Shown here: positions 8,694 through 59,459 of the stretch, piece after piece | How positions within the stretch are numbered: the stretch's first letter is position 1 | How the letters are laid out: each line of letters starts with the position of its first letter | From: Alphaproteobacteria bacterium | GTDB taxonomy: Bacteria; Pseudomonadota; Alphaproteobacteria; SMXQ01 | Length of the DNA: 64,000 bases | Direction of reading: 5' to 3' | Assembly: GCA_035714115.1 (NCBI GenBank) | Contig: DASTMO010000020.1 | Span: 6,073-70,072 of the forward strand | Notes under the pieces: generated by a model | What the model saw: the letters and a program-made list of their open reading frames with translations, nothing else | Database searches by the model: none | Told to the model about the DNA's origin: nothing | Translations under genes and position numbers: made by a program

Positions 8694-8718
8694 AACGCCG
8701 AGCAAAGGCGCGGGTTCC
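8694..8718 (-). promoter_or_regulatory. EcfG-type general stress promoter (perfect GGAAC-N16-CGTT) upstream of mipA
   Basis: Plus strand reads AACG-N16-GTTCC. The -10 element is 25 nt from the mipA ATG. Confidence 0.7.
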
Positions 8719-8810
8719 GCGCACGCGCGCGTTCGTGAGCCGTCATTAATCAGGGCCAGGATTTTGAAAAAATGCCATATTGCCGCCTTCACAGAGGAGA
8801 TGACCCCCCT

Positions 8811-9338
8811 ATGAAGAAGTCCCGTACGGTAAAATTGGCCCTTCTTGGCGGCGCCAGCCTGGCTTTGGCGGCGTGCGACGACAACAGCGGCCCGCCCAAC
8901 GACGCGCGCTACTTCGCCGACGCGAAGGAATGCGCCGCGATCTACGACGACGCGTCCTGCCGCGAATCGGCGCGCGCGAGCGAGCAGACCCATCTGGCGC
9001 AAGCGCCCAAGTTCGGCCGCAAGGAAGAGTGCGAGCAGGAATTCGGCGCCGGCAACTGCGAGACCCGCCAATCGGCCGGCGGCGGCAGCTACTTCATGCC
9101 GCTGCTCATGGGCTACATGATGGGCAACATGATGGGCGGCAACCGCTTCAACGAGCCGGTCTATCGCGACCGCCAGGGCAACGCCGTGATGAACAGCGGC
9201 GGGCGCGCCTACAACGTCGGCAGCTTCGGCGCGACGGCGGGGCGGACGGCGGCGAGCTTCCGTCCGGCGGCGCCGACGCAGATCGCGCGCGGCGGCTTCG
9301 GCGCGGGCGCGGCGAAGTTCGGCAGCATCGGCAGCTGA
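8811..9338 (+). CDS. DUF1190 family lipoprotein (YgiB/YjfM-like)
   Basis: MKKSRTVKLALLGGASLALAAC lipobox and a Gly/Met-rich C-terminal half. Sits directly upstream of a GspS-like gene, as in E. coli ygiBC/yjfMC. Confidence 0.7.
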   Translation: MKKSRTVKLALLGGASLALAACDDNSGPPNDARYFADAKECAAIYDDASCRESARASEQTHLAQAPKFGRKEECEQEFGAGNCETRQSAGGGSYFMPLLMGYMMGNMMGGNRFNEPVYRDRQGNAVMNSGGRAYNVGSFGATAGRTAASFRPAAPTQIARGGFGAGAAKFGSIGS

Positions 9339-9341
9339 GAC

Positions 9342-10472
9342 GTGCAGCGGCACAGCGTCACGCCTCGCCCCGACTGGCGCGAGCATGTCGAGCGCGACCT
9401 CGGCTTCGCCTTCCACACCATCGACGGCGCGCTCTATTGGGACGAGACGGCCTGCTACAGCTTCACGGCGGCGCAGGTCGACGAGCTCGAGGCGGCGACC
9501 AACGAGCTCGAGCAAATGTCGCTCGCCCTGGTGGGCGACGTCATCTCGAAAGGCGAAGAGGCCTTCGAACGGCTGCGCATTCCGCGCGTCGCCTGGGACG
9601 CCATCGCCGGCAGCTGGCAGGCCGGCGAGAAGAATCTCTATGGCCGCTTCGATCTCGCTTATGACGGCGTCTCGCCGCCGCGCCTGCTGGAATACAACGC
9701 CGACACGCCGACGGCGCTGTTCGAGGCCGCCGTGGTGCAATGGGACTGGCTGCAGTCGCTCTGGCCCGAGCGCGACCAGTTCAACTCGATCCACGAACGG
9801 CTGATCGAGGCCTGGCGCAACTTCGGGCTGGGCGGCGCGCATCTGCATTTCTCCGCCGTGCGCAACCATCTGGAAGACGGCGGCACCGTCGATTATCTGC
9901 GCGACACGGCGATGCAGGCGGGTCTGCTGACCGACCGCATCGCCATCGAGGACATCGGCTGGGATGGCGCGCGCTTTCGCGATCTCGACGGCAACGCCAT
10001 CGAGGCGCTGTTCAAGCTTTATCCCTGGGAATGGCTGGTCGAGGAGCCGTTCGGCGAACATCTCTTGAGCGGCGTGACCAAAGTGATCGAGCCGGCCTGG
10101 AAGATGGTGCTCTCCAACAAAGCGTCGTTGGCGCTCTTGTGGGAGATGGCGCCCAACCATCCGAACCTGCTCGCCGCTTCGCTCGACGCCGGCGGCATCG
10201 CCGGCAAGCAGGCGCGCAAGCCGATCTACAGCCGCGAGGGCGGCAACGTGCAGCTGCTCGACGGCGGCAAGGTGCTGCAGGAGACCGGCGGCATCTATGG
10301 CGCGGAAGGCTTCGTCTACCAGGCCTACGCGCAGATTCCGTCGTTCGACGGCAACCATGCCGTCATCGGCTCCTGGGTCATCGCCAGCGAGGCCGCCGGC
10401 ATCGGCATCCGCGAGGACGTCAGCGCCATCACCAGCGACACCAGCCGTTTCGTGCCGCATTATTTCGAATAG
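9342..10472 (+). CDS. glutathionylspermidine synthase-like ATP-grasp protein (YgiC/YjfC family)
   Basis: 376 aa. Motifs RFDLAYDGVSPPRLLEYNADTPT and YSREGGNV are typical of the GSP_synth pre-ATP-grasp family. GTG start. Confidence 0.85.
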   Translation: MQRHSVTPRPDWREHVERDLGFAFHTIDGALYWDETACYSFTAAQVDELEAATNELEQMSLALVGDVISKGEEAFERLRIPRVAWDAIAGSWQAGEKNLYGRFDLAYDGVSPPRLLEYNADTPTALFEAAVVQWDWLQSLWPERDQFNSIHERLIEAWRNFGLGGAHLHFSAVRNHLEDGGTVDYLRDTAMQAGLLTDRIAIEDIGWDGARFRDLDGNAIEALFKLYPWEWLVEEPFGEHLLSGVTKVIEPAWKMVLSNKASLALLWEMAPNHPNLLAASLDAGGIAGKQARKPIYSREGGNVQLLDGGKVLQETGGIYGAEGFVYQAYAQIPSFDGNHAVIGSWVIASEAAGIGIREDVSAITSDTSRFVPHYFE

Positions 10473-10480
10473 GGGACACC

Positions 10481-10891: not shown

Positions 10892-10909
10892 CCCGGCGCG
10901 CAGCCGGGA

Positions 10910-10943
10910 TTATCCAGGTATAAATCGGCATTTATCCTGGTAT
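10910..10943. promoter_or_regulatory. two TTATCCWGGTAT boxes upstream of the MmyB-like regulator gene
   Basis: TTATCCAGGTAT at 10910-10921 and TTATCCTGGTAT at 10932-10943, 10-43 nt upstream of the ATG at 10953. Confidence 0.45.
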
Positions 10944-10952
10944 GATAGGGCC

Positions 10953-13458: not shown

Positions 13459-14175
13459 TCAGCGGCAGATCGAAAAGCCGCCCATGTCGAGATGGAAATG
13501 ATTGGCGTGGGCGGCGTTGTAGTCCGGGCCGAGCAGGGTCGGGAAAATGCGGCAGGCGCGGGCCTTCACGTCGCGCAGGAATAGCGCCTCTGCATCAGTG
13601 TCTCCGTTGCTCTTGGGCCAATCGCGCAGGATGCTGACGGTCTTGCCGTTGTTCAGGCGGAAGCTGGCGAGGTCGATGGCGTTGGCCGTGGCATGCTGGC
13701 TGCGCCGGCCGCTTTCGCGGCCATAGACGTTGCGGCAGGCATAGGTGCCGAGATGCGTGACGCCGGCAACCGGCTGGCCGAAGGCAGCTTCGGCGGCGGG
13801 TTGCAGCGCGTGGCGCTCGAACAGCGCCAGGCCGACGGCGAGCGGGCAGGTGGCCATGAAGCTGCTGCTGTAAGCGACGCCCGATTGGTTCACGCGCACA
13901 ACATTGCGCAAGGCGCATTCGAGATCGCGGTTGCTGTCGGGCAGCGCCGTGAAGCGCAGCGGCATGCGCGCCAAGGTGGCGAGACATTGGCGCGGATCGT
14001 CAGCCAGGCGCTTGAGCTTGTATTTGGTGAGGGCATTCGGCGCGTCTTCGATATGGAGCGGTCCCCAAGGATTGAGCCGATCGGGGATGCGCAGCGCGCC
14101 CGTCGCGAGCAGCACAGCCGCCGTTACGATTAGGAAAGCGGTTACGCTGAAGATAGTTGCGGCGATTCGCATCAA
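13459..14175 (-). CDS. extensin-like C-terminal domain protein, secreted or anchored
   Basis: 238 aa with an N-terminal TM segment. The C-terminus NAAHANHFHLDMGGFSICR matches the extensin-like C-terminal family common in Rhizobiales. Confidence 0.75.
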   Translation of the reverse strand: MMRIAATIFSVTAFLIVTAAVLLATGALRIPDRLNPWGPLHIEDAPNALTKYKLKRLADDPRQCLATLARMPLRFTALPDSNRDLECALRNVVRVNQSGVAYSSSFMATCPLAVGLALFERHALQPAAEAAFGQPVAGVTHLGTYACRNVYGRESGRRSQHATANAIDLASFRLNNGKTVSILRDWPKSNGDTDAEALFLRDVKARACRIFPTLLGPDYNAAHANHFHLDMGGFSICR

Positions 14176-14205: not shown

Positions 14206-14230
14206 AAACGCACCTTATTTCGTCCTGTTC
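14206..14230 (-). promoter_or_regulatory. EcfG-type promoter (perfect GGAAC-N16-CGTT) upstream of the extensin-like gene
   Basis: Plus strand reads AACG-N16-GTTCC, 31 nt from the ATG at 14175. Confidence 0.7.
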
Positions 14231-14303
14231 CTTGATCGGCGACAATCTCGCGCCTAAGTGAACCGCCAGCTTATCTTTCTGTTCATCTCGCGAGTCTTTC
14301 CCC

Positions 14304-21062: not shown

Positions 21063-21692
21063 GTGATCGATCTCTACACCTGGACCACGCCCAATGGCCG
21101 CAAGGTCCAGATCATGCTCGAAGAGCTGGGCCTGCAATACAACGTGCATTCGATCAACATCGGCAAGAACGAGCAGTTCGCGCCGGATTTCCTGAAGATC
21201 AGCCCGAACAACAAGATCCCGGCCATCGTCGATAGCCAAGGGCCGGGCGGCAAGCCCTACAGCCTGTTCGAATCGGGCGCGATCCTGATGTATCTCGCCG
21301 AGAAGACCGGCAGCGCTCTGTGGCCGCAGGAGACGGTGAAGAAGTACGAAGTGATGCAGTGGCTGATGTTCCAGATGGGCGGCTTCGGCCCGATGCTCGG
21401 CCAGGCGCACCACTTCCTGAAGTTCGCGCCGGAGAAGATTCCCTACGCTATGAAGCGCTACGGCGACGAGGCCAAGCGTCTCTATGGCGTGATCGACAAG
21501 CGCCTTGGCGAGGCCGAGTATCTGGCTGGCGATTATTCCATCGCCGACATCGCGACCTTCCCTTGGGCGCAGTCCTTCGCCATGCAGGGCATCGATTTCG
21601 CCGATTATCCCAATGTGAAGCGCTGGTTCGACGCCATCATGGCGCGCCCAGCTGTGCAGCGCGGCATTAAGGTCGGCGTCACGCCGGCCTGA
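21063..21692 (+). CDS. glutathione S-transferase, YfcG/Nu-class-like (paralogue 1)
   Basis: 209 aa: IDLYTWTTPNGRKVQIMLEELGL...ISPNNKIPAIVD...ESGAILMYLAEK. GTG start. Confidence 0.85.
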   Translation: MIDLYTWTTPNGRKVQIMLEELGLQYNVHSINIGKNEQFAPDFLKISPNNKIPAIVDSQGPGGKPYSLFESGAILMYLAEKTGSALWPQETVKKYEVMQWLMFQMGGFGPMLGQAHHFLKFAPEKIPYAMKRYGDEAKRLYGVIDKRLGEAEYLAGDYSIADIATFPWAQSFAMQGIDFADYPNVKRWFDAIMARPAVQRGIKVGVTPA

Positions 21693-21716
21693 ACATCACG
21701 CACTTTGAGTTGAAAA

Positions 21717-21741
21717 GGGGCGGCTTTTGCCGCCCTTTTTG
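21717..21741 (+). terminator. intrinsic terminator after GST paralogue 1
   Basis: GGGGCGGC tttt GCCGCCC TTTTT. Confidence 0.75.
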
Positions 21742-21863
21742 CTGCTCCGTGCTGCTCTACGCCCTGGCAGGAAAAATACTGTTACTTCGGCCAATATGGC
21801 GGCCCGGCATTCCGCCCCGTAGCATTTCGTCTATGCTGACTCCGCAGATTTGGGAGGAATCAT

Positions 21864-22556
21864 ATGCTGGACGTCTACAACTGGCCGACCTCGAACGGCC
21901 GCAAGATCTTCATCATGCTGGAGGAGACGGGGCTGCCCTATCGGGCGCATCCGGTCAGCATCCGCAAGGGCGAGCAGTTCGCCCCGGAGTTCTTGAAGTT
22001 CAGCCCGAACAACAAAATTCCCGCCGTGATCGATCAGGACGGGCCGGACGGCAAGCCGATCTCGCTCTTCGAGTCGGGCGCGATCCTGATGTATCTGGCG
22101 CAGAAGTCCGGCATGTTCCTGCCGAAAGACATGCGCGGCCAGTACGAGGTGCTGCCTTGGCTGTTCATGCAGGTCGGCCATGTCGGCCCGATGTTCGGCC
22201 AAGCCCACCATTTCCACGGCAACGCGCCCGAGGGCAGCGACTACGCCATCCAGCGCTTCGATAACGAGCAGAAGCGCATCTACAACGTGCTCGACAAGCG
22301 CCTGGGCGAATCCGAATACCTCGGCGGCGACTACTCCATCGCCGACATCGCGGTCTTTCCTTGGACGCAGGCCGACGAAGAGAAGGGCATGCTCAAGGAT
22401 TATCCCAACGTGAAACGCTGGTTCGACGCGATCATGGCGCGGCCCGGCGTGCAGAGGGGGCTGACGATCATGGCCGATGTGCGGCGCAATCAGCCGGCGA
22501 TGACGCCGGAGGTGCGCGAGATCATGTTCGGGGCCAAGCAATACGAGAAGCGCTGA
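21864..22556 (+). CDS. glutathione S-transferase, YfcG/Nu-class-like (paralogue 2)
   Basis: 230 aa with the same motif set (LDVYNWPTSNGRKIFIMLEETGL, SPNNKIPAVID, ESGAILMYLAQK). RBS GGGAGGAA. Confidence 0.85.
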   Translation: MLDVYNWPTSNGRKIFIMLEETGLPYRAHPVSIRKGEQFAPEFLKFSPNNKIPAVIDQDGPDGKPISLFESGAILMYLAQKSGMFLPKDMRGQYEVLPWLFMQVGHVGPMFGQAHHFHGNAPEGSDYAIQRFDNEQKRIYNVLDKRLGESEYLGGDYSIADIAVFPWTQADEEKGMLKDYPNVKRWFDAIMARPGVQRGLTIMADVRRNQPAMTPEVREIMFGAKQYEKR

Positions 22557-22608
22557 GGAGACCATCCCAGCGCGGGCGTGCTTGTTCATAGAAAGTCGAT
22601 ATGGGGGA

Positions 22609-23259
22609 ATGATGATCGACCTTTACACCTGGTCCACGCCGAACGGCCGCCGCGCGCCGATCATGCTGGAAGAATGCGGCCTGCCTTACGAAGCGCATTA
22701 TCTCGAACTGGCCAAGCACGAACACAAGACGCCGGCGATGAAGCTGATGAACCACGATCAGCGCATCCCGGTGATCGTCGATCCCGAGGGGCCGGAGGGC
22801 AAGCCGATCGCCGTCTCCGAGTCCTGCGCCATCCTGCTCTATCTCGCCGAGAAGACCGGCAAGTTCCTGCCCAAGAGCGGCGCGATGCGCGTCGAGGCGC
22901 AGAAGTGGCTGTTCTTCGCCGCGAGCAACGTCGGCCCCTGCGCGACCCAGCATTTCTGGCTGCCGACCAAGAGCAAGGCGAAGGGCGGCCTGCCGCCGGT
23001 CGAGCCTTTCGTCGATCTGTTCAACGATGAGCTCAAGCGCCTCTATGGCGTGATGAACGACCGCTTGGGCGAGGCCGAATATCTCGCTGGCGATTACTCC
23101 ATCGCCGACATCGCTGCCTATGTCTGGGTCTGGCGGCGCTATCAGCAGAAGATCGAGCTGGCGGCCTATCCCAATCTTAACCGCTGGTTCGAGGCGGTGA
23201 GCGCGCGTCCGGCCGTGCGCAAGGGCGAGCAGGTGCCGCCCAGAAATGACGGTCTCTGA
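22609..23259 (+). CDS. glutathione S-transferase, YfcG/Nu-class-like (paralogue 3, more divergent)
   Basis: MMIDLYTWSTPNGRRAPIMLEECGL..., ESCAILLYLAEK. Start chosen after the GGGGGA RBS; the ORF is open from 22582. Confidence 0.8.
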   Translation: MMIDLYTWSTPNGRRAPIMLEECGLPYEAHYLELAKHEHKTPAMKLMNHDQRIPVIVDPEGPEGKPIAVSESCAILLYLAEKTGKFLPKSGAMRVEAQKWLFFAASNVGPCATQHFWLPTKSKAKGGLPPVEPFVDLFNDELKRLYGVMNDRLGEAEYLAGDYSIADIAAYVWVWRRYQQKIELAAYPNLNRWFEAVSARPAVRKGEQVPPRNDGL

Positions 23260-23262: not shown

Positions 23263-23889
23263 TTAGCCTTCGGCGGCGCGCAGGCGGCGTTCGAGTTTGG
23301 TTTTCTCGCGCCGCCAGCGTTCGCCTTCGGTCTCGATCTTTCGCTCGACGGCTTGCTGCTGACGGTCGAGCGCGGCCAAGGCCGCCGCGTGACGCGCCTC
23401 GGCTTTCTTGAGCGCCGCGCGCGCCTTGACGGCCGCCGCTTCGCGCGCTTTGGTTTCGCGGGCCTCGGTGGCGGCCTGCTTCGCTTCTGCCGCCGCGCGC
23501 GCTTTCTCGCGCTTGGCGCGGGTCTTCTCGAAGGCGGCGATCTGCGCCCGCGCGGCATCGCGATCGGCGACCGCCTTGGCGCCGCGTTTGGACGGCGCGG
23601 CTTTCTTGGGCGTCTTGGCGGGCTTTTTGGCTTTGACCGGCAGGCTGTCCGGCAGCGCGGGGTTCTCGATGAAAGCGCCCTTCGAGCCGACGGCGCGCTT
23701 GATGACGAGCCCAGGCTGGGCGGTGGCGGCGGCGACGATCTTGGGATCGTCGGTCTCCACGGCGAAACCTTGATGGAACAGGTTCTGCGGCACGCCCCAG
23801 GCTTCGAGCGCGGCTTTCATGGAGGGCGCGGCCACGGCCATCTCGAAGAAGCCGATGGTGGTGACGAAGGTCTTGAGCTTGCGCGCCAT
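23263..23889 (-). CDS. hypothetical protein with a globular N-domain and a Lys/Ala-rich coiled-coil tail
   Basis: 208 aa with RBS GGGAGAGAA. The C-terminal half is a low-complexity AKREKARAAAEAKQAA-type helix. No family recognised. Confidence 0.6.
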   Translation of the reverse strand: MARKLKTFVTTIGFFEMAVAAPSMKAALEAWGVPQNLFHQGFAVETDDPKIVAAATAQPGLVIKRAVGSKGAFIENPALPDSLPVKAKKPAKTPKKAAPSKRGAKAVADRDAARAQIAAFEKTRAKREKARAAAEAKQAATEARETKAREAAAVKARAALKKAEARHAAALAALDRQQQAVERKIETEGERWRREKTKLERRLRAAEG

Positions 23890-24052
23890 ATTCTCTCCCT
23901 GCCCATAAAAGAGAAACGAGGACGCCCGGGGAAGCGTCCTCGTCTCGTTTTCGGCTGGCCTGCCCGGGAGGGGTTTCCTCCGGGGAAGAGGGTGCCCGGC
24001 GGCTTGCCGAACCGGTGCTTTCTAATGGCGCCGTCCTGGCGCCGCCCGCGTC

Positions 24053-25006
24053 TTACTGCGCGGTGAAATACTTGGCGGCGGCCTGGTTGGTGCTGATCAC
24101 GTTGCCGCGCGGCGCGTCGTCGTCGGTACCCTGCACCACCCAGTCCCACTGGGCCGGGGCAGCGATCGGGCAGGCGATGGTCAGCGGCGTGGTGATCGTC
24201 TCCTGCACGCTGTCGCCGCGCGTCGGCGCGGAGAGCGGCACGCCGCCCGGCGGCAAGGCGACGGCGGTCGGCGTCGCCGGGGCGGCGACCACGACCTGCT
24301 GCATCACGCCCGGATTGATGATGGTGTAGCTGCCGTTCGGCTGGGCGACGACAGTGGCCGGTGCGGTCACCACGGTGCCCGGCGCGACCGGCACGACGCT
24401 GGCCGACTGCAGCACCATGGGCGCAGCGGTGGCGACGGTCGAAGCGCCGCGCACCTGCACCACGCGCGGATCGCGCAGGTCGCTGGCGCCGTTGGCGTCG
24501 GTCACGGTGTAGCTGAGCTGCACGTTCACCGCCTGGCCGCCGCAGGTCATCACATTATGCGACGGCGGATTGATCTGCGCCGCGACGATGGTGGCCGGCG
24601 TGTTGTTGATCGTCAGCGAGCCGATCGGCGTGTCGCTGACCATGCCGTTCTTCGTCGTCAGGCGCAGGCTGACGGGATAGACGCCGTCCTTGGCCGGCGC
24701 GCGCACGGCGACGCTGGTGCTGACCATGTCGTTCGGCGAGGCTGGGACGCCGAGCTTGCTCACGGTGCCGGCGCTCAGGCTGTTCGGCGGCAGGCCGACC
24801 AGCTCAGCGCTGGCGACGTTCGAGCTGCCGCCGGGCAGGCGATAGCTGATCACGGCGGACTGGCCAGGGTCGATGGCGCGCGGCGCGAGGGTGATGTCGG
24901 TCGGCTGCGGCATGTTGACGGAATTGCCGGCGCAGGCGGCGAGCATCAGCCCCGCGGCGCTGAGGATGATGGTCGTGCCGAGCAGGCGGGTCTTGGGGAA
25001 GGTCAT
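24053..25006 (-). CDS. hypothetical lipoprotein (Thr/Val/Ala-rich, beta-rich)
   Basis: 317 aa with lipobox LMLAAC. It lies 50 nt downstream of the DUF1328 gene on the same strand and is followed by a hairpin terminator near 23925-23965. Confidence 0.6.
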   Translation of the reverse strand: MTFPKTRLLGTTIILSAAGLMLAACAGNSVNMPQPTDITLAPRAIDPGQSAVISYRLPGGSSNVASAELVGLPPNSLSAGTVSKLGVPASPNDMVSTSVAVRAPAKDGVYPVSLRLTTKNGMVSDTPIGSLTINNTPATIVAAQINPPSHNVMTCGGQAVNVQLSYTVTDANGASDLRDPRVVQVRGASTVATAAPMVLQSASVVPVAPGTVVTAPATVVAQPNGSYTIINPGVMQQVVVAAPATPTAVALPPGGVPLSAPTRGDSVQETITTPLTIACPIAAPAQWDWVVQGTDDDAPRGNVISTNQAAAKYFTAQ

Positions 25007-25056: not shown

Positions 25057-25242
25057 TTAGACGGGAGGCGGCGGCACGCCGCGGCCGCGCATCAGATGCG
25101 CGATTAGGCTGACGGCGAAGAGCACCAGGAAGATGAAGAAGAGGATGCGGGCGATCTCGACCGCGATGATGGTCACGCCGCCGAAGCCGAGCAGAGCGGC
25201 GATCAACGCGATGACGAGGAAGGTGAGGGCAAGGCGCAACAT
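25057..25242 (-). CDS. DUF1328 (UPF0391, YtjA-like) small membrane protein
   Basis: 61 aa: MLRLALTFLVIALIAALLGFGGV..., the hallmark of the DUF1328 family. Confidence 0.85.
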   Translation of the reverse strand: MLRLALTFLVIALIAALLGFGGVTIIAVEIARILFFIFLVLFAVSLIAHLMRGRGVPPPPV

Positions 25243-25310
25243 GGCGGCCTCCTGTTCGTTGCTGGACGCGCGTTCGGTTGCGTCGAGCCCCCGAACAATC
25301 TCAGTTCCTC

Positions 25311-25335
25311 AACGCGGGCAGATATGAAGCGTTCC
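25311..25335 (-). promoter_or_regulatory. EcfG-type promoter (perfect GGAAC-N16-CGTT) upstream of the DUF1328 gene
   Basis: Plus strand reads AACG-N16-GTTCC, 69 nt from the ATG at 25242. Confidence 0.7.
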
Positions 25336-25381
25336 GAGCAGCAGGCCGGGTAAAATGGGAAATTAAATCCAGCAAAGCTGC

Positions 25382-25406
25382 GGAACGGTCGGCTGCGAAT
25401 CGCGTT
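25382..25406 (+). promoter_or_regulatory. orphan EcfG-type promoter (perfect GGAAC-N16-CGTT) with no downstream CDS
   Basis: GGAAC ggtcggctgcgaatcg CGTT on the plus strand. It points toward the 3' end of the convergent ecfG gene. Confidence 0.6.
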
Positions 25407-25412
25407 CTTTGC

Positions 25413-25596
25413 GCGAACCGGTCGCCGGCGAACGCCGCGATCTCGCACGGCTACAATCCCTTTCGAGTTTGCGTCGCAGGGCGTCGATGTGCCGGTTCGC
25501 TTCACTGAGGGCGCCGCGCGATTCGTGCGGCGCCCTCAGACCATTCTGGATCCAGGGCAGGCGCGTAAAAAAAAGCCCCGCCGGGGTCGGCGGGGC
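25413..25596 (+). ncRNA. candidate EcfG-dependent small RNA (ends inferred)
   Basis: The region downstream of the orphan promoter contains a perfect 13-bp stem (25505-25517 with 25527-25539, 9-nt loop) and ends at the GC hairpin 25575-25596. It holds no ORF with a credible RBS. Confidence 0.3.
25567..25596 (-). terminator. intrinsic terminator of ecfG paralogue 1
   Basis: On the minus strand, stem GCCCCGCC/GGCGGGGC is followed by eight U residues. Confidence 0.75.
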
Positions 25597-25678
25597 TATT
25601 CGGGTACGACGGATTTAAGCGGAGGCACGCGAACCGGAAAGCCGGGCCTCTACATGAGGTCCGGCTTGTCCGGGAGAG

Positions 25679-26326
25679 TCAGGCGACGTGGCGGCGATGG
25701 TGCGCGTCGGACGAATGCGACTTGTCGCGCAGCATGGCGACGCTGCGGCGGCCGATGCTTTCGTTCTTGCGCTTGCGGGTGATGCCGGCCTGCGGCGAAA
25801 CGTCGTCCATCGTCAGGCCATCGACCATGCGCATCAGCGAATGGCGGGCGCGCGAGAGGCGCGAGCGCACGGTGCCGACCGGCACGCCGGTGACCTGCGC
25901 GGCCTCTTCGTAGCTCATGTCTTCCAGGGCGACGAGGATCAGCGTCGTACGCTGCTCTTCAGGGAGCTGCTCCATAGCGTTCTGCAGATCGCCGAGCTGC
26001 AGGCTCTCGACCTGATTGGGGCGGGTGTAGAGGCCGCTCATCATCGATTCGGCCGATTCGTCGGCGTCGCGCGCGCGCTTCACCTTGCGTACGCCGTCGA
26101 TGAAGACGTTGTGCATGATGGTGAGCAGCCAGGCGCGCAAATTCGTGCCTTGCTCGAAGCGGTCCATGTTGACGATGGCCCGCATCAGGCAGGTCTGCAC
26201 CAAATCGTCGGCGTCGGCCGCATTGCGCGTCAGGGCGCGGGCATAGCGGCGGATGTAGGGAATCTGGCCGACGAGAACCGACTCGATCTTCTTGTTGTCG
26301 GTGTTTTCGAGGGTGGTGCTGGTCAT
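25679..26326 (-). CDS. ecfG: ECF sigma factor, EcfG (RpoE2)-like, paralogue 1
   Basis: 215 aa. GQIPYIRRYARALTRNAADADDLVQ..., GTNLRAWLLTIMHNVF and region 4.2 YEEAAQVTGVPVGTVRSRLSRAR match my recollection of the EcfG/RpoE2 group. Confidence 0.8.
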   Translation of the reverse strand: MTSTTLENTDNKKIESVLVGQIPYIRRYARALTRNAADADDLVQTCLMRAIVNMDRFEQGTNLRAWLLTIMHNVFIDGVRKVKRARDADESAESMMSGLYTRPNQVESLQLGDLQNAMEQLPEEQRTTLILVALEDMSYEEAAQVTGVPVGTVRSRLSRARHSLMRMVDGLTMDDVSPQAGITRKRKNESIGRRSVAMLRDKSHSSDAHHRRHVA

Positions 26327-26534
26327 GTCGTGGGTCCTTCCGTTGCTAGCGTCTGTCCACGTCGCTGTGTGGGGCGCTGGTCGTGGGGGCGAGACGGCCC
26401 GGATGGATCGTTAAAGGCTTGAAAGCGTTAGCCATCCGAACTGCCGCCGACCGCGAGTGAGGTGCGCTCGACAAAGCAATGTTCCCAGCTTGGCGGGGGC
26501 ATTGGCGTGGCAAAGCCCCGGAAGGCTGTGTCAA

Positions 26535-26559
26535 AACTGAGGCCCGGAAGGGGCGTTCC
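26535..26559 (-). promoter_or_regulatory. near-consensus EcfG-type promoter (GGAAC-N16-AGTT), possible ecfG autoregulation
   Basis: Plus strand reads AACT-N16-GTTCC. It sits back-to-back with the nepR promoter but about 210 nt from the ecfG ATG. Confidence 0.35.
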
Positions 26560-26579
26560 ACGGAAAATATCCCTTTTCG

Positions 26580-26604
26580 GGAACGCTTTTGGACACAGGT
26601 CGTT
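26580..26604 (+). promoter_or_regulatory. EcfG-type promoter (perfect GGAAC-N16-CGTT) upstream of the nepR-like gene
   Basis: GGAAC gcttttggacacaggt CGTT, 66 nt from position 26670. Confidence 0.7.
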
Positions 26605-26669
26605 AATGAACTAGTACGGAAGGCATAGAACGGGGGGCTTTCCGGGTAGAGCGGACCCCATTTAAGGTT

Positions 26670-26915
26670 GTGAACCCCATGAACAGTGCCCTGATGATGA
26701 CCGAACGCAAAACGCCCTCTCTCAACGGTTCCGTCGGCGCCCAGAACGGCGTCGTGAATGCTCTGCGCCGCCTGTACGACCCGGTGCTCGAAGAGCCTGT
26801 GCCGGACTTTCTGCTCCGCGCCGCTTCGATGACGCGTGACGAGGCGGCGGCAGCCGTCGCCGCGCGCGATGCGGAGAGCGCGGAAGAGAGCAAGCCGGAG
26901 ACGCAGCAGCACTAA
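26670..26915 (+). CDS. nepR: NepR-like anti-sigma factor (start codon uncertain)
   Basis: 81 aa or shorter. The central LRRLYDPVLEEPVPDFLL resembles the NepR core motif (L..Y..V..EP.P..F..LL). Preceded by a perfect EcfG-type promoter and followed by a strong terminator. Confidence 0.6.
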   Translation: MNPMNSALMMTERKTPSLNGSVGAQNGVVNALRRLYDPVLEEPVPDFLLRAASMTRDEAAAAVAARDAESAEESKPETQQH

Positions 26916-26942
26916 GCGGCGCGGACAGCCAATTGAACGAAG

Positions 26943-26973
26943 CCGGCGGGGGCGAACCTCGCCGGTTTTTTTT
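26943..26973 (+). terminator. intrinsic terminator of the nepR-like gene
   Basis: CCGGCG ggggcgaacct CGCCGG followed by eight T residues. Confidence 0.75.
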
Positions 26974-26998
26974 GCGCCCAAATATGCGGCAGGCTGCG

Positions 26999-27023
26999 GG
27001 AACTTGAACGCGCCCCTCGCGTT
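26999..27023 (+). promoter_or_regulatory. EcfG-type promoter (perfect GGAAC-N16-CGTT) upstream of the Gly-zipper lipoprotein gene
   Basis: GGAAC ttgaacgcgcccctcg CGTT, 54 nt from the ATG at 27077. Confidence 0.7.
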
Positions 27024-27076: not shown

Positions 27077-27334
27077 ATGGCTTATTCCGCGCTTCGCTTT
27101 GCTGTCCCGGCGATCCTATTGCTCGGCCTCGCTGCTTGCGGCAGCACTCAAGAAGATCGCGTGAGCGGCGGCGCTGCCACCGGCGCCGGTACCGGCGCGG
27201 CGGTCGGTGCGCTGTTCGGCGGCGTCGGCGCGATTCCCGGCGCGCTCATCGGCGGCGCCATCGGCGGCGGCACCGGCTATGCGACTACGGAAGAGCAGGT
27301 CGATCTCGGCGAGCCGGTGTGGAAGCGCTGGTAA
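27077..27334 (+). CDS. glycine-zipper lipoprotein (17-kDa surface antigen-like)
   Basis: 85 aa with lipobox LGLAAC and Gly-zipper repeats (GAGTGAAVGALFGGVGAIPGALIGGAIGGGTG). RBS AGGAG. Start chosen inside the longer ORF. Confidence 0.8.
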   Translation: MAYSALRFAVPAILLLGLAACGSTQEDRVSGGAATGAGTGAAVGALFGGVGAIPGALIGGAIGGGTGYATTEEQVDLGEPVWKRW

Positions 27335-27421: not shown

Positions 27422-27514
27422 TGGCGGAACGAGAGGGATTCGAACCCTCGATACGACTTTTGATCGTATAACGGTTTAGCAAACCGCCGCCTTCAGCCAC
27501 TCGGCCATCGCTCC
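27422..27514 (-). tRNA. tRNA-Ser (anticodon GCU)
   Basis: Minus strand reads GGAGCGATGGCCGAGTGG...GGTTTGCTAAACC...GAGGGTTCGAATCCCTCTCGTTCCGCCA. It has a long variable arm, a T-arm GGTTCGAATCC, an encoded CCA, and anticodon loop TTGCTAA. Confidence 0.9.
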
Positions 27515-31838: not shown

Positions 31839-31863
31839 GGAACATGCACTGCCAACCTCCGTT
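31839..31863 (+). promoter_or_regulatory. EcfG-type promoter (perfect GGAAC-N16-CGTT) upstream of the Mn catalase gene
   Basis: GGAAC atgcactgccaacctc CGTT, 51 nt from the ATG at 31914. Confidence 0.7.
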
Positions 31864-31913: not shown

Positions 31914-32813
31914 ATGTTCATGCATAACAAGACGCTCATGCACACCGTGCGCGTGGCGCAACCTGATCCCCGGCTCGCCAGCATCATGCTGGAGCAGTTC
32001 GGCGGCCCGCAGGGCGAGTTGGCGGCGGCGATGCGTTACTTCACCCAAGCGCTGGCCGAGAGCGATCCGAACCGCAAGGACATGCTGTTCGATATCGCGA
32101 CGGAGGAGCTGTGTCATCTCGAGATCATTGGCAACATCATCGTGATGCTGACCAAAGGCACGAAAGGCAAAATGGCCGAGGGTACCGAGGCGGGCGAGCT
32201 GCTCAGCGACGTGTTCCACGGCGGCGAGAGCCATACGACATCGCTGCTTTACGGCGGACCCGGCCTGATCAACTCCGGCGGCGCGCCTTGGACCGCCGCC
32301 TATATCGACACGATCGGCGAGCCAACGGCGGATTTCCGCTCGAATATCGCCGCCGAATCGCGCGCTAAGATCATCTATGAGCGCTTGATCAACACGACCG
32401 ACGATCCCGACCTGAAGCAGTCGCTCGGCTTCCTGATGACGCGCGAGATCGCGCATCAGAAGTCGTTCGAGAAAGCCCTTTACAGCATCGAAGCCAATTT
32501 CCCGCCGGGCAAGCTGCCGGGCCTGCCGGAATATGCGAATAAATACTACAAGCTCTCGTCCGGCGAAGAAGGCGAGGGGCCATGGAACAGCGGCGAGAAA
32601 TGGGAGCGGGTCGACGATCCGGCGCAGGCGATGGCGGTGGATGGCGGCGACGGCACGGCCGATGTCGGCCTCGAGAGCGAGGACCAAGCTTTGTTCGATC
32701 AGATGACTGAACGCTTGGCCTCCGATCTGGAGTCGGATCCCATGACCGGCGCGGAGCTCGGTGCAGGCGAAGAGGAAGCCGACGCGAAGCCGCGCGGCAA
32801 GAAGTCCAAATAA
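31914..32813 (+). CDS. manganese catalase family protein
   Basis: 299 aa. LEQFGGPQGELAAAMRYFTQA and EELCHLEIIG are the dimanganese ligand motifs. Confidence 0.9.
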   Translation: MFMHNKTLMHTVRVAQPDPRLASIMLEQFGGPQGELAAAMRYFTQALAESDPNRKDMLFDIATEELCHLEIIGNIIVMLTKGTKGKMAEGTEAGELLSDVFHGGESHTTSLLYGGPGLINSGGAPWTAAYIDTIGEPTADFRSNIAAESRAKIIYERLINTTDDPDLKQSLGFLMTREIAHQKSFEKALYSIEANFPPGKLPGLPEYANKYYKLSSGEEGEGPWNSGEKWERVDDPAQAMAVDGGDGTADVGLESEDQALFDQMTERLASDLESDPMTGAELGAGEEEADAKPRGKKSK

Positions 32814-33481: not shown

Positions 33482-33604
33482 TAGGCCTTCAAGTAGGATT
33501 CGCCACTAGCTTAAGTTAACAATGCGCGAATCCTACCCGATATAGTTCCACAAGCTTTCGCTGTGCTGTTTGTCAGGCTTTTGACATAACGAAGCGCAGC
33601 ACGG

Positions 33605-54863: not shown

Positions 54864-55040
54864 CTACGCCTGGGGCGGCACGTTCTGAGGCGGCGGCTCG
54901 ATCGGCGGCGCTTCATTGGGCGGCTGCGGCGCTGGAACTTCGTTCGGCGGCGCTTCGGCCGGTTGCGGCGGATTGAGCGGCGGCGCGCGCTCGGGCGGCG
55001 GCACGTTCGGTTCCTGCACTGGCTGAATTTCGTCAGGCAT
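54864..55040 (-). CDS. proline-rich microprotein (58 aa), hypothetical
   Basis: AGGAG sits 6 nt upstream of the ATG at 55040. The product MPDEIQPVQEPNVPPPERAPPLNPPQPAEAPPNEVPAPQPPNEAPPIEPPPQNVPPQA is very Pro-rich with PPNE(V/A)P repeats. It fills an otherwise empty 259-nt gap. Confidence 0.45.
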   Translation of the reverse strand: MPDEIQPVQEPNVPPPERAPPLNPPQPAEAPPNEVPAPQPPNEAPPIEPPPQNVPPQA

Positions 55041-55066
55041 GATCATCTCCTGCTGTTGCTGATATA

Positions 55067-55093
55067 GGAACGATCTGCTTAGCGATCTGTTCT
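55067..55093. promoter_or_regulatory. overlapping divergent EcfG-like promoters (plus GGAAC-N16-TGTT toward the SDR; minus AGAAC-N16-CGTT toward the Pro-rich ORF)
   Basis: The sequence GGAACGATCTGCTTAGCGATCTGTTCT reads as a near-consensus motif on both strands. Confidence 0.45.
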
Positions 55094-55122: not shown

Positions 55123-55974
55123 ATGGCCGAGCAGCAGCGGGAACCGCAGCATCAGGATCATCAGCCCGGCGAGCGCGATGAAATGTCGCCGCCGCCGAAC
55201 GACAATGCTTCGTCCTACAAGGGCAGCGGCAAGCTGACGGGCAAGGCTGCCATCATCACCGGCGGGGACAGCGGCATCGGCCGTTCGACGGCGATTTCCT
55301 TCGCCAAGGAAGGCGCCGATGTCTGCATCGTCTATCTTGAAGAGGACAAGGACGCCGAGGAAACCGAGCGGTTGGTGCGTAAAGCCGGCGGTCAAGCGCT
55401 GTTGATGCGCGGCGACATCTGCGACCGCGACTTTTGCATTAAGGCGGTCGAGGCTGCGGCCGAGGAGTTCGGCGGCTTGGACATCGTCGTTAACAACGCG
55501 GCCGTGCAATATCCCGAAGAAGATTTCCTTGCCATCAAGCCGGAAAATCTCGAACGCACATACCAAACGAACATTCTGGCGATGTTCCATGTGACGCAGG
55601 CGGCCTTGCCGCATTTGCGCGAGAAGGGCTGCGTCATCAACACGGCCTCCATCACGGCCTTTCAGGGTAATCCCAAGCTGATCGATTATTCATCGACCAA
55701 GGGGGCCATCGTCTCTTTCACCCGAGCGCTTGCCAAATCGCTGGTGAAGAAAGGCATTCGCGTGAACGCCGTCGCGCCGGGGCCGGTCTGGACGCCGCTC
55801 ATTCCATCGTCCTTCGATGCTGACGATGTCGCCAAATTCGGCAGCGACAATCCCATGGGCCGCGCCGCCAAAGCCGACGAAATCTCCCCGGCCTTCGTGT
55901 TTCTCGCCTCGGCTGACGCGAATTTCATCACGGGACAGATCATCCACATCAATGGCGGGGAATTCTTAGGTTAG
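55123..55974 (+). CDS. SDR family oxidoreductase, YghA/YdaD (general stress protein 39)-like
   Basis: The charged N-terminal extension followed by GKAAIITGGDSGIGRS and YSSTKGA is the typical architecture of the YghA/YdaD subgroup. RBS AGGAG. Confidence 0.88.
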   Translation: MAEQQREPQHQDHQPGERDEMSPPPNDNASSYKGSGKLTGKAAIITGGDSGIGRSTAISFAKEGADVCIVYLEEDKDAEETERLVRKAGGQALLMRGDICDRDFCIKAVEAAAEEFGGLDIVVNNAAVQYPEEDFLAIKPENLERTYQTNILAMFHVTQAALPHLREKGCVINTASITAFQGNPKLIDYSSTKGAIVSFTRALAKSLVKKGIRVNAVAPGPVWTPLIPSSFDADDVAKFGSDNPMGRAAKADEISPAFVFLASADANFITGQIIHINGGEFLG

Positions 55975-55983: not shown

Positions 55984-56009
55984 GGAACCGCGCAGCGACG
56001 CTTTGCGTT
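55984..56009 (+). promoter_or_regulatory. EcfG-type promoter (GGAAC-N17-CGTT) upstream of ligD
   Basis: GGAAC cgcgcagcgacgctttg CGTT, 32 nt from the ATG at 56041. Confidence 0.6.
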
Positions 56010-56040
56010 ATCCTAGGTTCGAGCAACGAGGATCGGCGCT

Positions 56041-58503
56041 ATGGCCCTCAGGACGTATCGCAAGAAGCGCGATTTCAAACAGACCCAGGAGCCGGCCGGC
56101 GGCAAGCCGGCGCGTCGGCGCGCCGGTTTGCATTTCGTCGTGCATAAGCATGATGCCAGCCATCTGCATTTCGATCTGCGTCTGGAGATGGACGGCGTCC
56201 TGAAATCCTGGGCGGTGCCGAAGGGGCCGAGCCTCGACCCCAAGGAGAAGCGTCTAGCGGTCGAGGTCGAGGATCATCCCTACGAATACGGCGCATTCGA
56301 AGGCACCATTCCGGCAGGGCAATATGGCGGCGGCACGGTGCAGTTGTGGGACCGCGGCAGCCTGGAATACGAAGGCGATCGAACGCCGCAGGAGGCGCTG
56401 AAGAAGGGCGACCTGAAGTTCACCGTTAGCGGCGCTCACATGAAGGGCAGCTGGGCGCTGGTTCGCATGCGCCGTCGCGGCAAGGAAAAGCGCGACAACT
56501 GGCTTTTGATCAAACATCGCGACGCTTATGCGAAGTCGGGCAAAGCGGCGGATATCGCGGCCATCGATGAATCCGTCGCCAGCGGGCGCAGCATGGCCGA
56601 AATCGCCGGCGGCGTAAAAGTCTGGAGCAAGCCGACGAAGCGGCCGGCCAACAAGCAGACCGCTGCCAAGACGCCGACGAAGAAAGCCAAGAAGGTTTCG
56701 GCCAAGGCAGCTTTCATCCCGCCGCAGCTGGCGACGCTGTCGGCCCATCCGCCGGGCGACGGCGAATGGATTCATGAAGTGAAGTTCGACGGCTATCGTA
56801 CGCAAGTCCATGTGCGCGGCGGCGAGGCGACCTGCTATTCGCGCAAAGGTCTCGACTGGACCCATCGTTTCCCGGAAATAGCCGAGGATTGCGCCGGCCT
56901 GCCCGATTGCATTCTGGACGGCGAAGTGGTGGCGCTGAATGCCAAGGGCGAGACGGATTTTTCCGCGTTGCAGTCGGCGCTCAGCGATGAGAAGACCGGC
57001 AAGCTGATTTATTACGTCTTCGATCTGTTGGCCGTCGATGGCGAGGATTTGCGAGATGAGCCTCAGCTCAAGCGCAAGGCGCGGCTTGATGAATTGTTGG
57101 CGGATGCGCCGGACCGCATCCGCTATGTCGCGCATTTCGACAAGGCGGGCGAGGCGGTGTTGAAATCTGCCTGCCGCATGGCTTTCGAGGGCGTCGTCTC
57201 AAAGAAGGCGGATGCGACATACTCATCCGGGCGCAACGCCAGCTGGCTCAAAACCAAATGCCGCGGCCGCGAGGAGTTCGTCATCGGCGGTTATTGGCCG
57301 GGCAGCAGCGGCAAAGCCGTCGGCGCGCTGCTGGTCGGTCTGCCGAATGGCAAATCCTTCGCCTATAAGGGGCGGGTCGGTTCCGGCTACAACCAGGCGG
57401 TGACGGCGCAGCTGCTGGAGAAATTCAAACCGCTCAAGATCAAAGATACGCCATTCGAAGGCAAGCAGCCGGCCAGCCTGAAAGGCCTCATCTGGCTCAA
57501 GCCGCAGCTCGTCGCCGAGGTCGAATATGCCGGCTGGACGGCCGAGGGCATCCTGCGTCAGGCTTCCTTCAAAGGCCTGCGCGACGACAAGAGCGCGCGC
57601 GAGGTCGGCCAGGATCGTGGGGCGCAAGTGCAGGCCAAGACCACTTCGTCAATCAAGCTGACCAATCCGGACAAGAAGCTGTGGCCGGAGGATGATGTCA
57701 CCAAGGCCGATCTTGCCGCCTATTTCGCGGCGGTGTCCGACGACATGCTGCGCTTTATCGGCGGGCGGCCGGTCTCTATCCTGCGGATTCCCGATGGCAT
57801 CCATCAGCAGCAGATCTTTCAGCGCCACCGCATGAAGGGCATGTCGGCGCTGATTGAGGACGTCAATCTCTCAAACGAGAAGAAAGAGCGTCAGCCCTAT
57901 CTCATGGTCAACAGCGCCGAGGGATTGCAGGCGCTGGCGCAACTCGGCACGGCGGAGATCCACGGCTGGGGCGCGACGGCGGACGATATCGAGCGGCCGG
58001 ATAATATCGTCATCGATCTCGATCCTGATCCGGACGTGGCCTTTGCCGATCTCAAGCGCGCCACGCTCGAGGTGCGCGAGCATTTCGAGAATCTCGGCTT
58101 CGTTGCCTATCTCAAACTGACTGGCGGCAAGGGATTGCATGTGGTGGTGCCGCTCAAGCCCGCCGCCGATTGGGAGGCGGTTAAGAGCTTCGCCAAGCAG
58201 TTCGTCGACGCCATCGCCGCCGCCGATCCGGACCGCTTTGTTACGGTGGCCACCAAGGCCAAGCGCAAAGGAAAGATCTTCCTCGATTATCTGCGCAACG
58301 GACGAGGGGCGACGGCGATCATGCCCTGGTCGCCGCGCGCGCGGCCCGGCGCGACCATCGCTTTGCCGGTCGCCTGGAGCTTGTTGGAGAAAGCGCGCAA
58401 GATGCCGGCCTTCGGCATTAAAAGCCTAGCGGCAGCGCGCAAAGCCAGCGATCCTTGGCGCGATTTCGACAAGGACCGCAAACCGCTCAAATTCAAAAAA
58501 TGA
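56041..58503 (+). CDS. ligD: multidomain ATP-dependent DNA ligase LigD (phosphoesterase-ligase-polymerase)
   Basis: 820 aa: an N-terminal PE domain (FVVHKHDASHLHFDLRLE), a central ligase (EVKFDGYR adenylation lysine) and a C-terminal primase-polymerase domain. Confidence 0.93.
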   Translation: MALRTYRKKRDFKQTQEPAGGKPARRRAGLHFVVHKHDASHLHFDLRLEMDGVLKSWAVPKGPSLDPKEKRLAVEVEDHPYEYGAFEGTIPAGQYGGGTVQLWDRGSLEYEGDRTPQEALKKGDLKFTVSGAHMKGSWALVRMRRRGKEKRDNWLLIKHRDAYAKSGKAADIAAIDESVASGRSMAEIAGGVKVWSKPTKRPANKQTAAKTPTKKAKKVSAKAAFIPPQLATLSAHPPGDGEWIHEVKFDGYRTQVHVRGGEATCYSRKGLDWTHRFPEIAEDCAGLPDCILDGEVVALNAKGETDFSALQSALSDEKTGKLIYYVFDLLAVDGEDLRDEPQLKRKARLDELLADAPDRIRYVAHFDKAGEAVLKSACRMAFEGVVSKKADATYSSGRNASWLKTKCRGREEFVIGGYWPGSSGKAVGALLVGLPNGKSFAYKGRVGSGYNQAVTAQLLEKFKPLKIKDTPFEGKQPASLKGLIWLKPQLVAEVEYAGWTAEGILRQASFKGLRDDKSAREVGQDRGAQVQAKTTSSIKLTNPDKKLWPEDDVTKADLAAYFAAVSDDMLRFIGGRPVSILRIPDGIHQQQIFQRHRMKGMSALIEDVNLSNEKKERQPYLMVNSAEGLQALAQLGTAEIHGWGATADDIERPDNIVIDLDPDPDVAFADLKRATLEVREHFENLGFVAYLKLTGGKGLHVVVPLKPAADWEAVKSFAKQFVDAIAAADPDRFVTVATKAKRKGKIFLDYLRNGRGATAIMPWSPRARPGATIALPVAWSLLEKARKMPAFGIKSLAAARKASDPWRDFDKDRKPLKFKK

Positions 58504-58504
58504 T

Positions 58505-59401
58505 TTAGGCGCTCTTGCGTTTGGCGGCGGCCTTGCGTTTGGGCGCGGCCTTTTTGGCCTTTTTGGCCGGCGCTTTCTTCTTCTCCTGCGCTGCCATGAA
58601 ACGCGCCGCGCGCTTTTGCGGCTCGCCCTTGCCCGAAAGGCTCTTGCGCAAGGCTTCCATGAGGTCGACGACTTTCTCCTCGTCGTCTTCGTCCGGCGCG
58701 GCGGCGACGATCTTCTGGCCCTTGCTCTTGCGCTTGATCAGTTCGCGCAGAGCGTCTTCGTAGCGATCCTTGAACTTGTCGGGATCGAATGCGCCGGCTT
58801 GCTGATCGATGATCTTTTCCGCGATGTCGAGCATCTTGGCATCGACGCGCTTGGCCTTGATGTCGCCGAAGAACTGCTTCTCGGCGACCACCTCGTCATG
58901 GCTGCGCAGAGTGGTGAGCAGCAGGCCGTTGCCGCGCGGCTCCATGGCGACGATGCGCTCGCGCTGATGCATCACCAGCCGGCCGAGGGCGATCTTCTTG
59001 CTCTTCTCCATCGCCTGGCGGATCACGGCATAAGCGTCCTGGCCGGTCTTGCCGCTCGGCACGAGATAATAGGGATGGTCCCAATAGAGCCGGTCGATAT
59101 CGGCAGCATCGACGAATTCCTCGATGTCGATAGTCTTGGTTGCGGGGAGCCGCGCGTCCTCGATCTCTTTCGGCGAGACCACGACATAATGGTCTTTGGT
59201 CAGTTCGAAGCCGCGCACCAAATCCTTGCGCTCGACCTCGCCGAGCTCGGGATCGTGCGGCAGCATGCGGATGCGGTTGTTGGTCTTCTTGTGAAGCCAA
59301 TGGAAGGAGATGTCATTGCTGCTGGTCGTCGCGTTGAACAAGGCGACGGGGCAGGACACCAGCGAAAGCTGCAGATGGCCTTCCCAGATCGGGCGCGGCA
59401 T
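58505..59401 (-). CDS. ku: Ku DNA end-binding protein with a Lys-rich tail
   Basis: MPRPIWEGHLQLSLVSCPVALFNAT... is the canonical bacterial Ku N-terminus. RBS AGGAG. Only the last 298 codons of the 652-aa ORF are taken. Convergent with ligD with a 1-nt gap. Confidence 0.92.
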   Translation of the reverse strand: MPRPIWEGHLQLSLVSCPVALFNATTSSNDISFHWLHKKTNNRIRMLPHDPELGEVERKDLVRGFELTKDHYVVVSPKEIEDARLPATKTIDIEEFVDAADIDRLYWDHPYYLVPSGKTGQDAYAVIRQAMEKSKKIALGRLVMHQRERIVAMEPRGNGLLLTTLRSHDEVVAEKQFFGDIKAKRVDAKMLDIAEKIIDQQAGAFDPDKFKDRYEDALRELIKRKSKGQKIVAAAPDEDDEEKVVDLMEALRKSLSGKGEPQKRAARFMAAQEKKKAPAKKAKKAAPKRKAAAKRKSA

Positions 59402-59434
59402 GGTTAGTCTCCTCAAGGATGGTTGCCGGTGGAT

Positions 59435-59459
59435 AACGCCGGCAAAAGCCGACAATTCC
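59435..59459 (-). promoter_or_regulatory. near-consensus EcfG-type promoter (GGAAT-N16-CGTT) upstream of ku
   Basis: Plus strand reads AACG-N16-ATTCC, 34 nt from the ku ATG at 59401. Confidence 0.5.

Follow-up and report, generated by a model that had tools for sequence, protein, structure and literature searches.

The locus and its genes

This work concerns a 64,000-nucleotide stretch of DNA from an uncultured alphaproteobacterium (GenBank assembly GCA_035714115.1, contig DASTMO010000020.1), hereafter called the window, and the promoters within it that resemble those of EcfG, the sigma factor of the general stress response (GSR). The window holds two genes for EcfG-type sigma factors of the extracytoplasmic function (ECF) class, ecfG1 and ecfG2, and one gene for a NepR-like anti-sigma factor, none of which was mentioned in the initial annotation of this sequence. 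Around them lie genes for a DUF1328 membrane protein, a Gly-zipper lipoprotein, a manganese (Mn) catalase, a short-chain dehydrogenase/reductase (SDR), MipA, Ku and LigD, identities that had been proposed earlier and that Pfam confirms. We consider it very probable, as far as sequence can tell, that the window contains part of the GSR core, namely ecfG1, a divergently oriented nepR and the paralog ecfG2, amid about 12 units with EcfG-type promoters.

The motif scan covered the whole window on both strands, including coding DNA, and 100 dinucleotide-preserving shuffles served as the null model. The gene map was built from third-position GC content and annotated with Pfam; it leaves 11.9% of the window as intergenic. 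For comparison, we used related metagenome-assembled genomes with ~75–89% protein identity. The ecfG1 locus was taken from four relatives (L001–L004, ~80% EcfG identity); for each of the orthologous ku/ligD/SDR, Mn catalase and MipA/Extensin-like loci, two to four relatives were used. More distant protein matches come from Ferrovibrio, Reyranella and Dongiaceae. Coordinates are collected in Table 1, and a sign after a position in the text gives the strand.

Table 1. Promoter sites, genes and RNA features of the window
Feature	Position	Strand	Details
mipA promoter	8694–8718	−	GGAAC-N16-CGTT, 24 nt before ATG
mipA/ompV-family outer-membrane protein gene	7875–8669	−	Pfam MipA, 4e-51
Extensin-like_C gene promoter	14207–14231	−	Perfect N16
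Extensin-like_C domain protein gene	13459–14175	−	Pfam PF06904, 4e-57; probable ATG 14172
DUF1328 promoter	25311–25335	−	Perfect N16
DUF1328 membrane protein gene	25057–25242	−	Pfam DUF1328
317-aa lipoprotein gene	24053–25006	−	50-nt gap to DUF1328 gene; synteny conserved
Orphan EcfG-type promoter	25382–25406	+	Perfect N16; no open reading frame downstream
Candidate EcfG-dependent small RNA	25413–25600	+	~190 nt, ends predicted
GC-rich hairpin common to ecfG1 (intrinsic terminator) and the convergent candidate small RNA	25574–25597		T-run on −
ecfG1, EcfG-type ECF sigma factor gene	25679–26326	−	Pfam Sigma70_r2, Sigma70_r4_2; PhyR_sigma2 68 bits (cut-off 27)
ecfG1 promoter variant	26535–26559	−	GGAAC-N16-AGTT, then conserved 208-nt leader
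nepR promoter	26580–26604	+	Perfect N16
nepR-like anti-sigma factor gene	26670–26915	+	Monocistronic; own terminator 26951–26973
Gly-zipper lipoprotein gene promoter	26999–27023	+	Perfect N16; gene 27077–27334, Pfam
Mn catalase gene promoter	31839–31863	+	Perfect N16; gene 31914–32813, Pfam
ecfG2, second EcfG-type sigma factor gene	32859–33440	−	56% identical to EcfG1; PhyR_sigma2 65 bits (cut-off 27)
SDR promoter	within 55067–55093	+	GGAAC-N16-TGTT; SDR gene 55123–55974
Pro-rich open reading frame promoter	within 55067–55093	−	AGAAC-N16-CGTT, overlapping and divergent from the SDR promoter; reading frame 54864–55046
ligD promoter	55984–56009	+	GGAAC-N17-CGTT; ligD 56041–58503
ku promoter variant	59435–59459	−	GGAAT-N16-CGTT; ku 58505–59401

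An excess of EcfG-type promoters

GGAAC-N16-CGTT is the published EcfG consensus (PMC7083833, PMC5869019). The window contains seven perfect matches to it, exactly the number found by eye in the initial annotation, which placed six of them correctly and set the one at 14207− a base too low, at 14206. Shuffled sequences contain a mean of 0.45 matches and never more than 3, in line with the earlier expectation of about 0.5 per spacer length, and the Poisson probability of seven is 5e-7. A 17-nt spacer gives a single match, the expected one at 55984+, and a 15-nt spacer gives none in the window on either strand. All eight perfect matches lie outside genes (P ~4e-8) and none within coding DNA, so that the intergenic placement described before holds once coding DNA is scanned too. 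Among one-mismatch N16 matches, 11 are genic, 8 are intergenic (~1.5 would be expected at the genic rate) and 2 fall on gene edges.

That these matches arose by chance in GC-rich intergenic DNA is barely conceivable, since none of the 100 shuffles reached seven, the two probabilities above are very small, and the positions are conserved between orthologous loci. A match of the chance kind probably does exist in one relative, where a perfect site in the tRNA-Ser leader (L027, 8322−) looks accidental; it is absent from the window.

Four near-matches had also been listed, and all are present with one mismatch each: 26535− (AGTT), 55067+ (TGTT), 55069− (AGAAC) and 59435− (GGAAT). The AAC triplet of the −35 element is retained in the first three and lost in the GGAAT of ku. 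In Sphingopyxis granuli TFA, this triplet hardly varies and the −10 element allows alternatives, TGTT being among the commonest and validated in vitro (PMC7083833); the EcfG-regulated genes of Sphingomonas melonis include an AGTT site and an OmpV gene (PMC6599016).

The sites have the −35 GGAAC and −10 CGTT of an EcfG promoter, 16–17 bp apart, perfectly in eight cases and with one mismatch in four, and ten of the twelve lie in sense orientation within ~100 bp of a coding sequence, with 22–68 nt between the end of the −10 element and the start codon. The initial annotation had placed all but one at 25–70 nt; there are in fact two exceptions, 25382+, which has no open reading frame (ORF) downstream, and 26535−, which lies 208 nt from the ecfG1 start.

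In a matrix derived from 40 orthologous sites, positions outside GGAAC and CGTT carry near-zero information except for a weak G preceding CGTT, and scanning with it would therefore gain nothing over consensus matching. The same matrix bears on whether something other than EcfG reads the motif. ECF sigma factors commonly use AAC at −35 and CGT at −10 (PMC7083833), and four sites continue as CGTTC, which creates an inverted repeat; another ECF sigma factor of similar specificity, or a dimeric transcription factor bound to a partly palindromic GGAACG...CGTTCC, could thus be imagined. We regard this as very improbable. In the 40 sites, the positions that directly follow CGTT and GGAAC are nearly uninformative, and the sites all point the same way, at a distance from the start codon that suits a promoter. 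The only sigma factor genes in the window are the two of EcfG type, and nepR and ecfG1 themselves carry the motif. The near-matches on the reverse strand at 25384− and 27001− follow from the partial self-complementarity of the motif and are not conserved.

Conservation in related genomes

With two exceptions, ligD in three relatives and the orphan promoter in L003, each perfect site of the window is matched by a perfect site at the orthologous position wherever the upstream region of a relative was retrieved, and the spacers between the cores are 50% identical (226 of 449 positions) while the core bases are retained. The DUF1328, nepR and Gly-zipper promoters are perfect in L001–L004. A perfect site precedes the MipA orthologues in L029 and L030, the Extensin-like_C orthologues in L029 (N17) and L030 (N16), and the Mn catalase orthologues in L027 and L028.

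The near-matches recur with their own deviations. AGTT of ecfG1 is present in L001–L004, accompanied by GGAAC in three of these four relatives (four of five genomes including the window) and by AAAAC in the fourth. The overlapping SDR and Pro-rich ORF pair, GGAACG...TCTGTTCT, is invariant in 4/4 relatives (L020, L022, L024 and L026) including its flanks GGAACG and TGTTCT, and GGAATTGTC...CGTT of ku is invariant in 4/4 relatives. Because single-base variants (GGAAT, TGTT, AGTT and AGAAC) are held fixed across species, we suggest that promoter strengths are tuned. The N17 site of ligD is kept only where ligD is separated from the SDR gene (the window, L024 and L031); in L020, L022 and L026, where ligD directly adjoins the SDR gene, it lacks a promoter of its own, and the two genes are presumably transcribed together.

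Several other candidates were rejected as not conserved: the one-mismatch sites at 48806−, upstream of a phosphoenolpyruvate carboxykinase gene, and 60541+, upstream of a TctC gene, and a two-mismatch site at 14259+, at an Old Yellow Enzyme gene.

Taken together, the published consensus, the regulators in the window, the orthologous conservation and a cargo that matches experimentally determined regulons support the reading of these motifs as EcfG promoters, as the initial annotation had proposed.

The regulators

EcfG1 and EcfG2 both combine sigma-2 and sigma-4 domains, with a sigma-2 domain that resembles the sigma-like domain of PhyR, as expected of EcfG (ECF15-type) factors. The best match of EcfG1 among solved structures is 5uxx_A (8e-29), which we take to be the Bartonella EcfG–NepR complex. 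The NepR-like protein carries the motif LRRLYDPVLEEPVPDFLL (LRxxYDxVxxEPVPD), which aligns to Caulobacter NepR (3t0y_B) as a weak match with E = 0.2. Its gene is adjacent to ecfG1 but divergent from it, which differs from the canonical nepR-ecfG operon with phyR nearby, and the two promoters stand back to back with their −35 elements 20 bp apart. No conserved EcfG motif was found upstream of ecfG2; a candidate with a 15-nt spacer at 33588− was discarded as not conserved.

The intergenic region between ecfG1 and nepR (26327–26669) has a mean column identity of 77% over five genomes, which is unusually high. The spacer of the nepR promoter is nearly invariant, and both leaders contain long invariant blocks, for example ACGCTAGCAACGGAAGGACCCACG before the ecfG1 start. 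Because of this conservation, the sequence suggests additional regulation in the region.

An orphan promoter and a candidate small RNA

Perfect copies of the orphan promoter at 25382+ occur in L001, L002 and L004, and L003 has a degenerate one. The promoter is followed by a ~190-nt stretch that is conserved in the same three relatives, and partly in L003, and that folds far better than shuffled sequence (z-score −5.4). The consensus structure has 49 pairs, of which 6 show compensatory changes. It comprises a long 5′ stem whose apical part varies in length, then a 16-bp central hairpin that includes five compensatory pairs, and finally a GC terminator hairpin. The stretch has no Rfam family; at gathering and permissive thresholds alike, Rfam yielded nothing beyond the tRNA and terminator look-alikes. 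According to Tien et al. (2018, PMC5869019), homologues of gsrN and GsrN-like RNAs are usually found next to the GSR locus, downstream of an EcfG site. Here too, a consensus EcfG site stands upstream and the GSR locus is adjacent, which makes the predicted transcript from 25382+ a candidate GsrN-like small RNA (sRNA) by position and promoter.

A fuller proposal, which we offer tentatively and with some doubt, is that the orphan promoter drives a previously undescribed family of ~190-nt structured RNAs in a GSR locus with divergent nepR/ecfG and unlinked phyR. The RNA would be unrelated to GsrN in sequence and convergent with ecfG1, with which it would share a terminator, and it would possibly target stress mRNAs in trans and, where transcription reads through, curb the sigma factor in cis as an antisense RNA. 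The T-run of the shared hairpin is good on the ecfG1 strand only, which makes read-through into ecfG1 antisense plausible. This asymmetry, together with the convergent arrangement, would suit a stretch that is not a trans-acting sRNA but an antisense or convergent-transcription device damping ecfG1. A small-protein gene would be another such alternative, as ORFs of 69 and 97 aa are present. We think this pair of alternatives unlikely: the relatives have apical insertions of various lengths and compensatory changes in the hairpins, which favors an RNA structure over coding, and GC content at third codon positions is 0.68 in the 69-aa ORF against ~0.85 in real genes of the window.

Other approaches to the RNA gave little. 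When metagenome contigs were scanned with the conserved 5′ end, all 12 of the 12 matches were chance hits in GC-rich coding DNA, and duplex prediction between the RNA and the leaders in the window returned only meaningless full-length duplexes. A 151-nt metatranscriptome contig of a relative spans the region corresponding to 25404–25546, at a depth as low as that of the surrounding DNA.

The apical loop of the RNA is pyrimidine-rich and variable. A motif like AUCCAAUUCG recurs in single-stranded parts, in the apical loop and in the linker that follows the central hairpin (25530–25560 in the window, and in relatives), and L001 has two copies of it. This motif could be a seed sequence.

Weighing the evidence: local regulon or inherited synteny

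Several observations count against interpreting the window as part of a GSR regulon, or limit what can be drawn from it. The NepR assignment falls below the curated cut-offs (23.4 bits against 25.7 in Pfam and 18 bits against 100 in NCBIfam), and the protein is called NepR-like. Neither the window nor any of 12 related loci contains a PhyR-like ORF, and the complete partner switch is therefore an assumption. Each promoter may be served by either EcfG1 or EcfG2. The RNA runs with similar sequence are all low-depth metatranscriptomes, whose contigs are thin and even across the locus and uninformative on transcript ends. The orthologous sites were located by motif scanning, which makes their 100% core identity partly circular; the informative test is that a site stands at essentially every orthologous position and that control sites are absent. 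Three further points concern gene order and make the linkage of the outer sites look like inherited synteny more than a tight island. GCA_046297835.1 keeps the order of the window, but the genes extend over ~98 kb of a single contig and are interrupted by an integrative element and further insertions. In L028, Mn catalase lies in a different gene neighborhood, where its promoter is the sole perfect site in 21 kb. L002 lacks the segment from 27.4 to 33.6 kb, which carries Mn catalase and ecfG2.

The initial annotation had taken the unusual density of sites to define a local regulon. The genome of S. granuli measures ~4.7 Mb. At that size, the 79 transcription units of the S. granuli regulon amount to ~1.1 units per 64 kb. 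In S. melonis, ~5% of the genes are EcfG-regulated. Measured in this way, against published regulons of other species and not against the genome at hand, the 12 units of the window, or 12–13 of its 57 genes, represent a 4–10-fold excess (P 2e-9 to 3e-4; P = 2e-5 for 12 of 57 genes). In a 98% identical strain, two more perfect sites lie ~6 kb beyond the position of the window end.

Since the window contains the sigma and anti-sigma factor genes, the core locus, where motifs of this kind are to be expected, accounts for five of the twelve sites: the DUF1328, orphan, ecfG1, nepR and Gly-zipper promoters fall within 1.7 kb (25311–27023). The promoters might accordingly be real and a ‘local regulon’ have no functional meaning, the cluster being an autoregulated core plus neighbors held together by inherited synteny. 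The three points of gene order would agree with this, and, if a large regulon of ~3.5 units per 64 kb is assumed, the seven sites outside the core have P ~0.07. The improbability of 12 units under the published regulons speaks against it, as do the sites beyond the window end. We judge its probability to be a little short of even. From the core-locus sites, the 98-kb spread and the differences in L028 and L002, our reading is that sites are truly enriched around the regulator, for the most part through inherited synteny, and that they do not form a discrete island.

Two side observations belong here. The two sites beyond the window end form a back-to-back pair before a YegS/DAGK-like lipid kinase gene and a gene for a lipoprotein of 53–55 aa (55 aa in the 98% identical strain). 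Such a pair is present in four loci, at 19311–19362 in L031 and at ~4680–4770 in L020, L022 and L024, with the sites 1–22 bp apart. The segment 27400–33600, which carries genes for a thiamine pyrophosphate enzyme and a PhoX-like protein besides Mn catalase and ecfG2, adjoins tRNA-Ser(GCT) (27422–27514, −). In L027, the locus from GCA_046297835.1, the Mn catalase–ecfG2 pair also lies beside tRNA-Ser, and the integrative element inserted there encodes a serine recombinase, a DNA methylase and an SNF2 helicase. From its sequence, the segment looks like a variable tRNA-associated region.

Neighboring genes and leaders

The DUF1328 promoter probably also serves the downstream gene for the 317-aa lipoprotein, which has no Pfam or NCBIfam family match. 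This conserved lipoprotein and a conserved 208-aa protein, for which neither database has a family either, occupy 23263–25006 (−). The DUF1328 leader (25243–25310, −) contains a conserved GGAACTGAG immediately 3′ of the −10 element and a hairpin, GTTCGG...CCGAAC, with compensatory changes in its stem among relatives. The stretch 21063–23259 (+) encodes three tandem glutathione S-transferase paralogs with 43–63% mutual identity; the trio is kept in L001 and L002, and two members remain in L004.

Between the Extensin-like gene and a divergent Old Yellow Enzyme gene, a block, GTTCACTTAGGCGCGAG, lies within 14232–14303 and is invariant in three genomes. It is no EcfG site; a different regulator may use it as an operator. 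The small Pro-rich protein (58–60 aa, PPPERAPPLNPP...PQNVPPQA) is conserved in four relatives and has no Pfam or NCBIfam family; its gene abuts the 3′ end of a kefB-like gene.

A proposed regulatory circuit

If, as we infer, these promoters depend on EcfG and transcription starts where their geometry predicts, the locus would work as follows, borrowing from the established PhyR–NepR–EcfG partner switch. NepR would hold EcfG in unstressed cells. Under stress, phosphorylated PhyR, encoded elsewhere, would capture NepR, and free EcfG would direct RNA polymerase to GGAAC (−35) and CGTT (−10) elements 16–17 bp apart. The envelope outputs would comprise MipA, the Extensin-like_C protein, the Gly-zipper lipoprotein, and DUF1328 with the lipoprotein gene that follows it. 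Other outputs would be Mn catalase, the YdaD/YghA-like SDR, end-joining repair by Ku and LigD, and the small Pro-rich protein. Transcription of nepR from its perfect site would provide negative feedback, and that of ecfG1 from its conserved but weaker AGTT variant would provide positive feedback. The structured ~190-nt RNA, convergent with ecfG1, might add a GsrN-like post-transcriptional arm.

Comparison with known systems

What we describe is a well-known regulatory system in a new lineage, distinguished by divergent nepR and ecfG1 with phyR unlinked, by fixed promoter variants and by a candidate sRNA. Comparative genomics yields with confidence a partial GSR regulon for an uncultured soil and freshwater alphaproteobacterial lineage. 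The candidate sRNA and the non-canonical layout of the locus are testable leads; the current view of the system is unchanged.

The window resembles the PhyR–NepR–EcfG systems of S. granuli TFA, S. melonis Fr1 and Caulobacter (sigma-T) in its consensus, in a flexible −10 element (TGTT, AGTT) and in the autoregulation of nepR and ecfG. As in TFA, there are two EcfG paralogs, one autoregulated and the other (ecfG2) without an EcfG promoter (PMC7083833). The cargo is also familiar: ku-ligD, catalases, OmpV/MipA and envelope proteins occur in published regulons (PMC7083833, PMC6599016), with ku-ligD and catalases found between them in those of S. granuli (PMC7083833), S. melonis (Ku) and Sinorhizobium meliloti (PMC6379672). 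The window differs from these systems in that nepR and ecfG1 are divergent with back-to-back promoters instead of forming a nepR-ecfG operon, phyR is absent from the window and the related loci, a conserved leader of 208 nt precedes ecfG1, the catalase is of the Mn type, and the density of sites is ~4–10 times the published average.

The predicted sRNA can be set beside GsrN, the sigma-T/EcfG-dependent sRNA of Caulobacter. Both are intergenic structured RNA genes with a consensus EcfG site directly beside ecfG. As far as Rfam searches go, no relationship in family or sequence between them was detected. The RNA of the window is longer (~190 nt), runs towards ecfG1 and has a terminator hairpin in common with it, and the exposed C-rich 5′ loop of GsrN is not clearly recognizable in this candidate, whose structure is predicted from sequence. 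Finally, the stress-inducible non-homologous end joining of S. meliloti under RpoE2 likewise has ku and ligD behind general-stress sigma promoters (PMC6379672), whereas in the window these genes are convergent, each with a site of its own, and three relatives read ligD from the SDR promoter.

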